Below, one piece after another: positions 25,795 to 29,530 of a stretch of DNA of 64,000 nt (positions are counted from its first letter, which is position 1; every line of letters begins with the position of its first letter). The position numbers and the translations under genes were made by a program. Origin of the DNA: a candidate division WOR-3 bacterium (GTDB lineage Bacteria; Hydrothermota; Hydrothermia; B15-G9); the NCBI GenBank assembly GCA_015489175.1, contig WGAI01000008.1, forward strand, positions 2,457-66,456, in the 5' to 3' direction. The notes under the pieces were generated by a model. It worked only from the letters and a program-made list of their open reading frames with translations, was not told the origin of the DNA and searched no databases.

Positions 25795-26913
25795 CTACTT
25801 TCCAACGACATAAGGTTTAATAGCATCGACTTTTGCACTGAGCGAAGGGACGAAAGCGGCGATCGTCAAGAGCAGCAGGAATCCCACAAGCACAGCCTTC
25901 ATGACATCCTGTCCCTTTATCGTGGCCGTAAGCCTCGGATCTTTTGCGAGGTAAGCACCAGCAGCGTAAAGCTCTTCACCCATCAGGGTGTAGTCACAAG
26001 CAGTTACAAAGAACGGCAGCTGAGATATGGCATCGGTGCCAGCGATCTGGATGGCGCCTGTCGCGGCTCCGGTCTCTGCAAGAATCAATGACTCTGCGAA
26101 GAAGTAGCCCATGAAGAAGTTGGTAGCCGTCTTTTCACGAACCATTATTCCGGATACGCCTGCGGCATAAGCGAACTGCCTCTGAGTCAGGAAGAATACA
26201 TCCTCACTTTTGAACAGATCTGGCCTGCCCGCTGCGGTGTAAGCATCCTTAACCACCTCACGCGCAACCGTGTAAACGATAGGATCGTAAACAGGAACGA
26301 TGATCCTTGTCTCATAAGCTGCCACTTTTTTCGTGATGTAAGCGAGGATGTTGAGCGCTGCGATAGTCGAAACATCGGTCACACCGAGCAGTCCGGTAGA
26401 GTATAGGATTGGCCGTCCCATCTCGGTGGCACGCCCAATGGCATTATCCACTTCCGCAAGCCCGGCTATAGGCCTCAAATATAACTCCTGGCCCTTCTGA
26501 GCTTTCGACATATAGGAAAGCAGGATTGCAATGTAGAAGATCGCGAGGAGGAGCAGGAACAGCTTTTTCTTGTTGAAAAGCGACGCCTTTGGTATAACGC
26601 TGTTGGAGACAGTTTGAGTTACGAACTTACCGGTCTTAGTGTTGACCAACACATAGTATCTAACGGGCATGGTATCAGACAATTCCCGATCACCAAGTCT
26701 TATAACGGTGTCCTTCACCTCACCTACATAAATGTCTTTCTTGACACCGTTATCCTCAATCCTGGTGATCCGCATAATGTCACCGATAAGTGAATTATCC
26801 AGTTTGACAATAATCTGCGTTCTGCCCCCCCCGTCGTCAGGCACATCGCGAGCCTTGACGGAGAGTTTGCTATTGGCCCCTGTCAGAAGGAGCAGTAATA
26901 CAAGCTTCACCAT
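25795..26913 (-). CDS. Module A subunit 1: signal peptide, FN3-like domain, TM, DUF6754-like domain, TM
   Basis: ARDVPDDGGG; LRPIAGL.EVDNAIGRATEMGRP; AESLILAETG; MGEELYAAGAYL. Paralog of 21351..22490. Confidence 0.85.
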   Translation of the reverse strand: MVKLVLLLLLTGANSKLSVKARDVPDDGGGRTQIIVKLDNSLIGDIMRITRIEDNGVKKDIYVGEVKDTVIRLGDRELSDTMPVRYYVLVNTKTGKFVTQTVSNSVIPKASLFNKKKLFLLLLAIFYIAILLSYMSKAQKGQELYLRPIAGLAEVDNAIGRATEMGRPILYSTGLLGVTDVSTIAALNILAYITKKVAAYETRIIVPVYDPIVYTVAREVVKDAYTAAGRPDLFKSEDVFFLTQRQFAYAAGVSGIMVREKTATNFFMGYFFAESLILAETGAATGAIQIAGTDAISQLPFFVTACDYTLMGEELYAAGAYLAKDPRLTATIKGQDVMKAVLVGFLLLLTIAAFVPSLSAKVDAIKPYVVGK

Positions 26914-26945: not shown

Positions 26946-26973
26946 CAAAAAAACCGCCCCAGCAAGCGGCGTT
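26946..26973 (-). terminator. Probable intrinsic terminator after the EF-G paralog/lipoprotein pair
   Basis: Minus strand gccgc-ttgctggg-gcggt followed by a long U-run. Confidence 0.6.
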
Positions 26974-26986
26974 ACAGTCGAAAAGG

Positions 26987-27403
26987 TCAATACACAGCTC
27001 TGACGACAGCTTGGGGAGTTATGATTCTGCCGCTCTTGCCGTCAAATTCGTAATCTATCACGACCTCCACGGTGTCATTAGGCTGCAATTGAAGATTGTA
27101 GATGTGCAGCTCGTTGGCGCTCGTGATCTCCCATTTGGCAAGGGAATCCTCAACTTCCGTCCCGTTGATAACAAAACTAATGCCCCTGAGCCGAACCTTG
27201 TTCAGCATATCTTCAGGGGCATTTGAAAGGTCAAAAGAAATCAGAATGTGACCTTTCCGAGCAGATAGAGTGTCGAAGGTGGGCATGAGGTTAACCCACG
27301 CCTCGACACTCTGTATATTCGCTTTTTTCCCGTTAAAGCATGACACGGCAGTTAGAACAACAACCAATATTGCAATCCCAATGGCTCTAAGCCTGAACCT
27401 CAC
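26987..27403 (-). CDS. Hypothetical lipoprotein
   Basis: Signal peptide with lipobox TAVS-C; start overlaps the stop of the EF-G paralog. Confidence 0.7.
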   Translation of the reverse strand: MRFRLRAIGIAILVVVLTAVSCFNGKKANIQSVEAWVNLMPTFDTLSARKGHILISFDLSNAPEDMLNKVRLRGISFVINGTEVEDSLAKWEITSANELHIYNLQLQPNDTVEVVIDYEFDGKSGRIITPQAVVRAVY

Positions 27404-29442
27404 TTCTCCTCCTCGTCTCTCTTCGTAAGTTCCTCAACGATTTTCTGAGCGATTTCACGAGGCACCTCATCATAATGAGAGAACCTCATTGTAAATACGC
27501 CTCTACCCTTTGTTATTGAACGCAATGTCGAGGAATATTTGTAAAGCTCTGCGAGCGGCACATGGGCCTTGATCTTCTGCATCTTGCCCGCCGCTTCCAT
27601 GCCAAGTATCCTGCCCCTTCTTGCGTTCAGGTCTCCGATCACATCTCCCATGTATTCGTCGGGCACAACAACCTCAACTTCATAGACAGGCTCCAGAAGG
27701 TATGGATCAGCCTTTCCCTCCGCATCTTTGAATGCGAGCGAACCGGCGACCTCAAATGCGAAGTTGGACGAATCCACCGGATGGTATTTTCCGTCGTAGA
27801 GTATCACTTTCACATCGACGACTTTCGCGCCAAGCACTCCCTTTTCCATCGCCTTCTTGACACCAAGTTCAACCGAGGGGATGTAGCTCTTGGGAATGGC
27901 GCCACCGAAGATCTGGTCTTCGAACTCAAATCCTCCGCCGCGTGGCAGAGGCTCGATCTTTATGTAACACACGCCATACTGACCTCTACCGCCTGTCTGC
28001 TTGACAAACCTGCCCATCCCCTGAGACGGCTTACGGATCGTCTCGCGGTAAGGGATTTTAGGCTTAGCCGTATCTACCGAGACATTGAACTTATCGCGCA
28101 ACTTGGAGATTATCACATCAAGGTGCTGTTCACCGAGCCCGTATATCAGCGTTTGATGTAGCTCTGTATCGTATTTGAACACAAATGTCGGGTCCTCATC
28201 GTGTAGTTTTGCAAGTCCTTCTGATACCTTTTCTTCATCCTCACGCGATTTGGGTATTATGGCAACCGATGTCAGCGGCTCAGGGAACTCAATCCCTTCA
28301 AGCACAACAGGGAAATCTTTGGATGTGAGTGTATGCCCGGTCTTGGTCTCCTTAAGTTTAACGAGCGCGCCAATCATGCCCGCAATGAGCCCATCCGTCT
28401 CTTTGCGCTCACGCCCGCGAATAAGATATATCTGATTGACCTTTTCAGTCCTGCCGAGATTGGCGTTCAAAACCTCTGTGCCGGGCTCAAGTTTTCCAGA
28501 GAACATGCGGATGAAATAGAGCTCGCCAACATGAAGCTCTGAGAATGTCTTGAACACGAAGGCGACCATTGAGCTGTCGGGATCGGCAATGATCTCGACC
28601 TCTTCATCGCCTTTTTTGCCAATTTCAGGCCTGAGATCGGCAGGCGATGCACCGAATTCGGCTATGAAATTGAGGAGTTCCTCAACACCGATGAGGTCTT
28701 TGGCCTCTCCGAACAGGACAGGGATGATGTTTCCACTCACTATGCCCTGACGGAGTGTTGAATTAAATTCCTCCTTCGAGATCTCTTCGCCCTCGAAGTA
28801 TTTTTCCATCAGCTCCTCCGAGAGCTCGATGACCGACTCCTTGAGTTCCTCCATCCGTGCCTCTGCTTCATCCCTGAGCTCGTCGGGAAGTTCGGAGGGA
28901 TCGCCGTTCAAAAGGTCAAAAACGCCCTTGAAATCAGGGCCTGAACCTATCGGAATCTGGAACGGGACAACTTCGTTCCCAAAAGTTTCTTTGAGTTCAC
29001 TCACCACCTGATCGAGATTTATGTCAGGCGTCTTACATTTGTTGATGAAGATTATGCGAGGCAAGCTCCTCTTGTTTGCTGCCTCCCAGTATTTCTCTGT
29101 CCCCACCTCGACGCCTGAAGCTGCATCGACGACCACTACCGCGTTATCGACCACACGAAGCGCGGCATAGACCTCGCCTGCGAAATCCAGATACCCGGGA
29201 GTATCAACCATGTTCATCCATTTTTTGTTCCACTCGAAATAGCTAACTGCGAGGTTGATGGATACTTTTCTGCGCTGTTCTTCGGACGAGAAATCCAGCA
29301 TCGAATTGCCCTGATCCACGCTGCCGAGCCTGTTTGTGACCCCAGCCTTATAGAGAAGTGCCTCACCGAGAGATGTTTTTCCGGCTCCGCCATGTCCTAT
29401 AAATGCGAAATTCCTAATTTTATCAACACTAAGCCCCTTCAA
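27400..29442 (-). CDS. fusA: Elongation factor G paralog (EF-G II-like G domain, intact domain IV)
   Basis: GHGGAGKTSLGEALL, switch I RKVSI, DTPGYLDF, NKCK; domain IV FVKQTGGRGQYG, GGAIPKSYIPSV, DGKYHPVDSS; domain V VPLAELYKY...LRS.T.GRG. TTG start with SD AGGAGG. Confidence 0.92.
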   Translation of the reverse strand: MKGLSVDKIRNFAFIGHGGAGKTSLGEALLYKAGVTNRLGSVDQGNSMLDFSSEEQRRKVSINLAVSYFEWNKKWMNMVDTPGYLDFAGEVYAALRVVDNAVVVVDAASGVEVGTEKYWEAANKRSLPRIIFINKCKTPDINLDQVVSELKETFGNEVVPFQIPIGSGPDFKGVFDLLNGDPSELPDELRDEAEARMEELKESVIELSEELMEKYFEGEEISKEEFNSTLRQGIVSGNIIPVLFGEAKDLIGVEELLNFIAEFGASPADLRPEIGKKGDEEVEIIADPDSSMVAFVFKTFSELHVGELYFIRMFSGKLEPGTEVLNANLGRTEKVNQIYLIRGRERKETDGLIAGMIGALVKLKETKTGHTLTSKDFPVVLEGIEFPEPLTSVAIIPKSREDEEKVSEGLAKLHDEDPTFVFKYDTELHQTLIYGLGEQHLDVIISKLRDKFNVSVDTAKPKIPYRETIRKPSQGMGRFVKQTGGRGQYGVCYIKIEPLPRGGGFEFEDQIFGGAIPKSYIPSVELGVKKAMEKGVLGAKVVDVKVILYDGKYHPVDSSNFAFEVAGSLAFKDAEGKADPYLLEPVYEVEVVVPDEYMGDVIGDLNARRGRILGMEAAGKMQKIKAHVPLAELYKYSSTLRSITKGRGVFTMRFSHYDEVPREIAQKIVEELTKRDEEEK

Positions 29443-29500
29443 GACAGTTCCTCCTTTTCTAAATTCAATTTATTCAAGTTTCTTTGCGGAAGATTGCAAC

Positions 29501-29530
29501 ATTATAAGGAAATTACTGGAAATGTGTCAA
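29501..29530 (-). promoter_or_regulatory. Consensus sigma70 promoter of the EF-G paralog
   Basis: Minus strand TTGACA-18 nt-TATAAT. Confidence 0.8.

Follow-up and report, generated by a model that had tools for sequence, protein, structure and literature searches.

An orphan EFG II-type elongation factor G with an intact domain IV tip as a candidate main translocase in a WOR-3 bacterium

Two EF-G genes of the window

The window, a stretch of 64,000 nucleotides from a candidate division WOR-3 (Hydrothermota) bacterium (contig WGAI01000008.1), contains two genes for elongation factor G (EF-G), which are listed with the associated features in Table 1. P0001 is an EFG II-type paralog at an orphan locus, and P0002 is the EF-G of the str operon. 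Searches of the whole genome with PF03764 and TIGR00484 found only these two EF-G genes. According to the original prediction, P0001 complements a decayed str-operon EF-G and may be the main translocase.

All five EF-G domains were found in P0001 with Pfam. The G domain carries the motifs GHGGAGKTS (aa 16-24), RKVSI (aa 58-62) and DTPGY (aa 80-84), and domain IV the motifs KQTGGRGQYG (aa 481-490), GGAIPKSYIP and YHPVDSS (aa 553-559); every motif quoted in the prediction was read in the translation of the open reading frame (ORF). The Tyr of DTPGY stands where the catalytic His is expected. Two further losses had been overlooked, and the G domain is more degenerate than was stated: the G4 motif is NKCK instead of NKxD, so that the Asp is gone, and the G5 motif is GEA instead of GSA, so that the Ser is gone. 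The P-loop, the Ser/Thr of switch I and DxPG are kept.

The reverse arrangement was found in P0002. Its G domain is canonical (AHIDAGKTT, RGITI, DTPGH and NKLD), but the tip of domain IV is replaced, with KVIGGTTHKGF in loop 1 and YG-TEITP where YHxVDSS is expected; in loop 2 the His and DSS are gone and there is a deletion of one residue. The difference is also clear from the Pfam model EFG_IV, which gave 140 bits over aa 461-578 of P0001 and 46 bits for P0002. Among orthologues of P0002 the tip-loop sequences vary freely, and proteins of this type share a conserved domain IV motif of their own, xxTP[LI].

An assignment of P0002 as an orthologue of spdEFG2/mtEFG2 was considered and rejected, since its domain IV gave a match to EFG I (67 bits) but none to mtEFG2 at E <= 0.001, and the protein nests in the EFG I clade of its own phylum. 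The spacer between rpsG and P0002 is unusually long, about 170 nt (62999-63169), and has no Rfam match.

Table 1. Location of the two EF-G genes and associated features in the window
Feature	Position	Strand	Basis or context
P0001, EFG II-type EF-G paralog, 680 aa, TTG start	27400..29442	-	ORF/translation, NCBIfam, Pfam, clade placement
P0001 G domain with G' insert, aa 8-262	28657..29421	-	Pfam GTP_EFTU, residue mapping to T. thermophilus EF-G
P0001 domain IV, aa 461-580; tip loops KQTGGRGQYG and YHPVDSS intact	27703..28062	-	Pfam EFG_IV
P0002, str-operon EF-G, 695 aa	60911..62998	-	between rpsG (63170-63637) and tuf (59675-60886)
Perfect sigma-70-type promoter TTGACA-N18-TATAAT	29501..29530	-	12/12 positions match
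Shine-Dalgarno sequence AAGGAGG, 7 nt ahead of TTG start	29450..29456	-	read from sequence
tRNA-Leu(TAG), immediately upstream of P0001	29582..29665	-	ARAGORN, Rfam
tRNA-Ala(GGC), upstream of P0001	29684..29758	-	ARAGORN, Rfam
138-aa ORF overlapping P0001 stop by 4 nt	26987..27403	-	ORF call
Terminator-like hairpin and T-run closing two-gene unit (P0001 and 138-aa ORF)	26953..26970	-	sequence

Assignment of P0001 to the EFG II subfamily

The EFG II subfamily, with EF-G-2 of Thermus thermophilus as its structural type (PDB 1WDT/2DY1), is marked by type I residues, a relaxed RGITI motif, Tyr or Phe after DxPG, an intact domain IV and a location outside the str operon (PMC3150367), and P0001 has all of these in common with it. 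To map the residues we used a phmmer alignment to T. thermophilus EF-G and the table of PMC3150367. The EFG II state at the type I positions is 19 Gly, 28 Leu, 64 Ser, 316 Thr, 360 Gly and 379 Lys/Arg in T. thermophilus EF-G1 numbering (PMC3150367), and P0001 has it at all six (G16, L25, S61, T299, G343 and K362). At the type II positions (224 D, 258 V, 272 L, 498 K, 499 K, 543 E and 633 G; PMC3150367) five of the seven residues are matched, the remaining two being Ser at 224 and Val at 498. This residue pattern recurs across 28 orthologues. The G2 relaxation from RGITI to xxxSx, an EFG II trait, is seen in P0001 as RKVSI, and orthologues from its class (type A below) have Ser or Thr at this place.

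In a maximum-likelihood tree (mixture model) type A was monophyletic (support 100), placed among external EFG II proteins and sister to one EFG II from Calditrichota (support 98), and a branch 0.52 long (support 100) split EFG I together with types B and C (defined below) from the EFG II clade. Both trees used here were quick searches with Shimodaira-Hasegawa-like approximate likelihood ratio (SH-aLRT) support only and were built without named spdEFG or T. thermophilus EF-G-2 references. Distant EFG II and EFG I sequences from other phyla (42-47% identity to P0001) were used as outgroups and to define what is normal for EFG II. Each of the 70 external EFG II sequences has DxPG[YF] together with undamaged loops in domain IV, so the combination of an intact domain IV with Tyr in place of His is not unusual in P0001. 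The contrast that had been drawn between its intact domain IV and its divergent G domain was therefore not borne out, as both are the rule in the subfamily. We presume that T. thermophilus EF-G-2 likewise has Tyr at the catalytic position.

The losses in G4 and G5 are a different matter. EFG II retains NKxD in G4 and gSAx in G5 (PMC3150367), and N[KQ]xD and GSA are kept by nearly all of the 70 external sequences. P0001 keeps G1 and G3 and deviates in G4 and G5. Among type A sequences covering the site, the G4 Asp is present in 0 of 26 and the G5 Ser in 0 of 27; the loss spans the phylum, with two exceptions that concern the Asp only. This deviation is no bar to membership, since the clade placement and the type I residues agree with it, and the sequence data assign P0001 as a true EFG II member. 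The protein further differs from the usual EFG II in evolving more slowly than its EFG I-type partner and in that this partner is an incomplete EFG I.

P0001 matched NCBIfam NF009381 (PRK12740.1-5, an 'elongation factor G' subfamily) over its full length with 874 bits (cut-off 583), and barely exceeded the cut-off of the TIGR00484 equivalog (664 against 659.4 bits). It lacks the marks of a canonical EFG I, having DTPGY, RKVSI and an orphan locus, and also those of spdEFG1, the translocation-specialised EF-G of spirochaetes, planctomycetes and deltaproteobacteria: switch I is without the three-residue KDG insertion, and an EFG II-type G domain takes the place of a canonical one. Scores were below the cut-off for the Bacteroides-type EF-G2 model NF058620 (603 bits, cut-off 1000), for the EF-G2 equivalog NF009377 (612 bits, cut-off 890) and for the ribosomal protection proteins Tet(M)/Tet(O) (347 bits, cut-off 775). 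Against individual proteins P0001 scored 616 bits with T. thermophilus EF-G and 441 bits with T. thermophilus EF-G-2.

Distribution of EF-G types in the class and phylum

We surveyed 30 relatives from 11 families of the class and distinguished three EF-G types: A, the P0001 orthologues; B, the tip-less str-operon type of P0002; and C, a third, fully canonical EF-G. Related genomes in this survey and in that of the phylum are non-independent samples. Type A was found in nearly all class relatives, the misses being assemblies that are 77-86% complete. Type B was also found in nearly all, and the tip is absent in every full-length copy (25 relatives). Type C is present in about 13 of the 30, consistently within families. 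Twelve relatives that are at least 95% complete, from six families and including genomes of three and four contigs, have A and B only. The tip loops of P0001 are invariant or near-invariant among the type A orthologues. The EFG II-type gene L017 (G008:C70) has an in-frame TAA and may be a pseudogene or an assembly error.

The type C genes (L023-L035, in G005, G007, G009, G010, G012, G017, G018, G022-G024, G028 and G029, with two copies in G009) lie outside the str operon in three unrelated contexts. Type C was sister to B in the mixture-model tree above and fell outside the native clade in the larger LG+G4 tree of EFG I-type copies; its origin could be either horizontal acquisition or an old paralog. 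In one further case (L037, G016:C107) the canonical third EF-G is broken into two ORFs and could be a pseudogene or an assembly error.

The phylum survey covered 61 genomes that are at least 90% complete, from 23 families, and motifs were read in 60 fetched genes. Nearly every genome has the EFG II type, and all copies examined had intact tip loops: KQ[TS]GG[RH]GQYG and [YF]HxVDSS are kept by the P0001 orthologues in all genomes examined across the phylum. At least one tip-intact EF-G is present in 60 of the 61 genomes. The exception is G071, an assembly in 210 contigs in which no tip-bearing copy was found; an EFG II type is present in its congener. The sole tip-bearing EF-G is of the EFG II type in at least 26 of the 61 genomes. 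The copy with a canonical G domain is tip-intact in some families and tip-less in others, namely f16, f17, f18, f19 and f29, single genomes of f15 and f20, and the whole class of the window. In the tree of EFG I-type copies type B of the window nests in the EFG I clade of the phylum, and the tip was lost in at least 7 changes on this tree, of which well-supported branches force at least 5. In another family of the phylum an open frame of 1075 aa contains an EFG I-type gene (L175, G031:C10:20321-22339), possibly an elongated EF-G or an EF-G fusion.

With translocation taken over by another factor, the constraint on EFG I would be relaxed, which agrees with the repeated loss of its tip. Such losses would be expected if the EFG II type is already the factor on which translocation in this phylum rests.

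A canonical EF-G could be hidden in the unassembled 4% of the genome of the window, which would make P0001 an ordinary accessory EFG II. The assembly is in 77 contigs and 95.6% complete, and the class relatives with a third copy outside the str operon show that such a gene can occur. In the search proposed in the original prediction, a third canonical EF-G was found neither in this 95.6%-complete genome, nor in the congener (G001, 95% complete), nor in an order relative (G004, 97%), nor in near-closed relatives. Four further families lack it throughout, even in genomes of three and four contigs that are 99-100% complete. Together with the consistent presence or absence of the third copy within families, this makes a hidden copy very improbable.

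Selection and conservation

Comparison with the congener gave a ratio of non-synonymous to synonymous substitutions (dN/dS) of 0.025 for P0001 and 0.094 for P0002, with amino-acid identities of 97.9% and 89.7%, respectively. Of 13 comparisons with relatives, 12 showed the higher conservation for P0001; at the order level its identity was 0.75, and that of P0002 was 0.51. In a control with five Bacillota genomes that have both subfamilies, EFG I gave 0.70-0.75 and EFG II 0.49-0.55. The constraint on P0001 and P0002 thus reverses the usual pattern of EFG I and EFG II.

Pairs of families, represented by one genome each, were then compared; these pairs are not independent and the outcome is only suggestive. 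Where both families have no canonical copy, the identity was 0.558 for A and 0.516 for B, with A above B in 11 of 15 pairs. Where both have a canonical copy, it was 0.499 for A and 0.543 for B, with A above B in 3 of 10.

The low dN/dS of P0002 and its TP[LI] motif indicate that it is a conserved, specialised paralog of the whole class and is not decaying. The proposal that P0001 complements the str-operon EF-G and may be the main translocase is favoured by all computational checks made, among them gene content, constraint and the conserved promoter described below; its description of the partner as decayed has to be dropped.

Promoter and indicators of expression

The promoter and the Shine-Dalgarno sequence ahead of P0001 are as had been predicted, with a match to the promoter consensus at every position. 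Thirteen perfect TTGACA-N16-18-TATAAT sites occur in the genome, where its composition would lead one to expect about 0.8. Downstream of them are tRNA genes (four sites; Gly, Leu, Ser and Asn-Arg), rpsT with tRNA-Val (one site) and P0001 (one site), so that 5 of the 12 sites other than that of P0001 drive tRNA genes or rpsT. The perfect promoter and AAGGAGG are kept 5' of P0001 orthologues in three families, although the upstream flanks are otherwise unrelated.

Codon adaptation, which the prediction had named as a check, also separates the two genes: P0001 ranks in the 86th-87th percentile and P0002 in the 54th-69th, in a genome whose codon bias is weak overall.

Across the whole genome (G000) perfect promoters are located on C6, C8, C12, C19, C29, C33, C37 (two), C40, C59, C67 and C70. 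No convincing ORF follows the sites on C19 and C67, which may be promoters of unannotated RNAs.

A possible division of labour between P0001 and P0002

Judging from gene content, motifs, phylogeny, selection and promoter conservation, P0001 appears to be the only plausible translocase candidate in this genome. From these observations we infer, with moderate confidence, that P0001 is probably the main translocase and that the str-operon P0002 handles ribosome recycling. The tip of P0001 (loop 1 GGRGQYG and loop 2 HPVDSS) would reach into the decoding centre as the pawl that moves the tRNA-mRNA complex. P0002, a canonical GTPase without the tip, would be left with the GTP-driven splitting of ribosomes that depends on ribosome recycling factor (RRF), the gene for which is present once in the genome.

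Because the His, the G4 Asp and the G5 Ser are lost, P0001 as a translocase may use little or no GTP hydrolysis. Translocation would probably be driven with slow hydrolysis or none and with weak or relaxed nucleotide binding, and binding weakened by the loss of the G4 Asp could give turnover without hydrolysis. Extending this nucleotide chemistry to the phylum, we infer only tentatively that its normal translocase, the sole one in many lineages, may be an EFG II without these three residues, that routine protein synthesis may proceed almost or entirely without GTP hydrolysis and perhaps with a less strict choice of nucleotide, and that hydrolysis may be kept only in the tip-less EF-G that splits ribosomes. 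This wider picture is possible, though clearly less probable than the assignment of the two jobs.

PMC4342817, and PMC3150367 citing Connell 2007, describe EFG II as able to translocate, and in the latter source GTP hydrolysis is reported for T. thermophilus EF-G-2. EF-G2 of Bacteroides thetaiotaomicron (Han et al. 2023, EMBO J, as cited in PMC12172202 and bioRxiv 10.64898/2026.05.25.727771) is reported to have no GTPase activity and yet to translocate slowly. According to the same accounts this protein (PDB 7UVP/8DMF, NF058620) is a starvation-induced extra beside a full EF-G, whereas no full EF-G was found here. Mycobacterium smegmatis EF-G2 (PDB 9K0Z/9K10) resembles P0001 in being of the EFG II type with minimal ribosome-dependent GTPase, but it is dispensable, does not recycle ribosomes and acts under stress beside a complete EF-G1 (bioRxiv 10.64898/2026.05.25.727771).

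A number of points weigh against P0001 as the main translocase. In other organisms an accessory role is ascribed to EFG II (PMC3150367, PMC4342817). The GTPase of M. smegmatis EF-G1 was almost eliminated by a His-to-Tyr change (bioRxiv 10.64898/2026.05.25.727771), and Escherichia coli EF-G H91A translocated about 30-fold more slowly and was not released from the ribosome (PMC4718068); since the E. coli mutant is slow and stuck, a GTPase-poor sole translocase would need another route of turnover. Where all three types coexist, conservation is highest for the canonical C (0.64; B 0.58, A 0.55), so there are lineages in which the EFG II type is not the translocase of choice. The codon adaptation of P0001 is good yet lower than that of ribosomal proteins, its TTG is a weaker start codon (a mild counter-signal), and the assembly is fragmented and about 4% incomplete. 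Finally, P0002 lies in the str operon, is under purifying selection and keeps both glycines of loop 1, which leaves room for a residual role in translocation.

These features of P0002, together with its fully canonical GTPase, would also suit a cell in which P0002 is still the everyday translocase as well as the recycler and P0001 is an accessory or stress factor, like EFG II of Mycobacterium or EF-G2 of Bacteroides. Published EFG II members are indeed non-essential or condition-specific (PMC3150367, PMC4342817, bioRxiv 10.64898/2026.05.25.727771). We consider this arrangement unlikely in view of the altered loop 2 of P0002 and the free variation of the loops among its orthologues, as the decoding-centre contacts of working translocases are invariant. 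Mutations in the domain IV tip of E. coli EF-G reduce the rate of translocation by two to three orders of magnitude. The tip has been lost at least 5-7 times, with another tip-bearing EF-G present in 60 of the 61 phylum genomes surveyed, and P0001 is four times more constrained than P0002, with stronger promoter and codon signals.

Alternatively, P0001 might carry out both translocation and recycling, with P0002 recruited to a new ribosome job such as rescue, hibernation or quality control. The domain IV of P0002 has a conserved motif of its own and is not merely eroded, it shows no specific similarity to the recycling factor mtEFG2, and regulatory roles are possible for EF-G paralogs, as for M. 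smegmatis EF-G2 (bioRxiv 10.64898/2026.05.25.727771). However, recycling in E. coli requires GTP hydrolysis, which is probably absent in P0001, and the gene neighbourhood of P0002 gives no pointer to another role. In the known splits (Borrelia, mitochondria and Pseudomonas) it is a tip-altered, GTPase-competent factor that is paired with RRF (PMC8203779, PMC3832671). This makes a new job for P0002 rather improbable, more so than its retention as everyday translocase.

Comparison with known pairs of EF-G proteins

If P0001 translocates and P0002 recycles, the closest parallels are systems in which two EF-Gs likewise replace one: EF-G1/EF-G2 of Borrelia burgdorferi, spdEFG1/spdEFG2 and mitochondrial EF-G1mt/EF-G2mt (PMC8203779, PMC3150367). 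The recycling-only EF-G2mt and Borrelia EF-G2 are marked by changes in loop 1 and keep their GTPase (PMC8203779). In these split pairs both proteins are derivatives of EF-G/EFG I with canonical G domains, whereas the presumed translocase here is an EFG II with a degenerate G domain; P0001 has no KDG insert in switch I, domain IV of P0002 has no match to mtEFG2, and P0002 nests in the EFG I clade of its own phylum.

The pair EF-G1A/EF-G1B of Pseudomonas aeruginosa is similar in another respect. Its poor translocase, linked to RRF, is the str-operon copy and its active translocase is the orphan copy, EF-G1A being 75-fold weaker than EF-G1B in poly(Phe) synthesis (PMC3832671). It differs in that both proteins are EFG I, 84% identical, and both are active as GTPases.

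The EFG II subfamily and the idea of a split EF-G function are thus already known. New here are the combination of an EFG II with a tip-less protein descended from the native EFG I, in a genome with no complete EF-G, the absence of the G4 Asp and of the G5 Ser as further losses in an EFG II, and the scale, a whole phylum with repeated loss of the tip. Our literature search found no paper linking WOR-3/Hydrothermota with EF-G. Surveys describe EFG I as indispensable and EFG II as always accompanying it, with translocation unlikely to be its main function (PMC3150367, PMC4342817), and in a study from 2025 the existence of species with the EF-G2 form alone was left as a question (PMC12172202). 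P0001 and its relatives would be a natural counter-example to EFG II as a mere accompanying factor. Through them the function of EFG II becomes directly testable, as does the viability of a cell whose translocase hydrolyses little or no GTP. With strain sy37 a WOR-3 member is now in culture (PMC12285271), which brings proteomics and biochemistry within reach.

Gene neighbourhood and additional observations

P0001 lies directly downstream of two tRNA genes on the same strand, as had been noted in the prediction, and a scan of its leader region with Rfam returned the two tRNAs and nothing further. Upstream of P0001 orthologues such tRNA neighbours were found only in the genus of the window. The same is true of the 138-aa ORF downstream, the N-terminus of which resembles a signal peptide or lipoprotein leader (…LTAVSC) and which matched no Pfam family. 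The tRNA linkage and the 138-aa ORF were rejected as functional partners of P0001, as both are confined to the genus. Directly downstream there is a gene for a DUF6754 membrane protein (25795-26913, minus strand; 352 bits).

The TIGR00484 search also returned a second EF-Tu-like ORF of 422 aa (G000:C72:12347-12754). In Ruminococcus / Acutalibacteraceae (L148, L151, L153, L154 and L156) the matches to canonical EF-G span about 2.5-2.76 kb, compared with the usual length of about 2.05 kb; the extra length suggests that about 150-240 aa are inserted within fusA, possibly as an intein or an additional domain.

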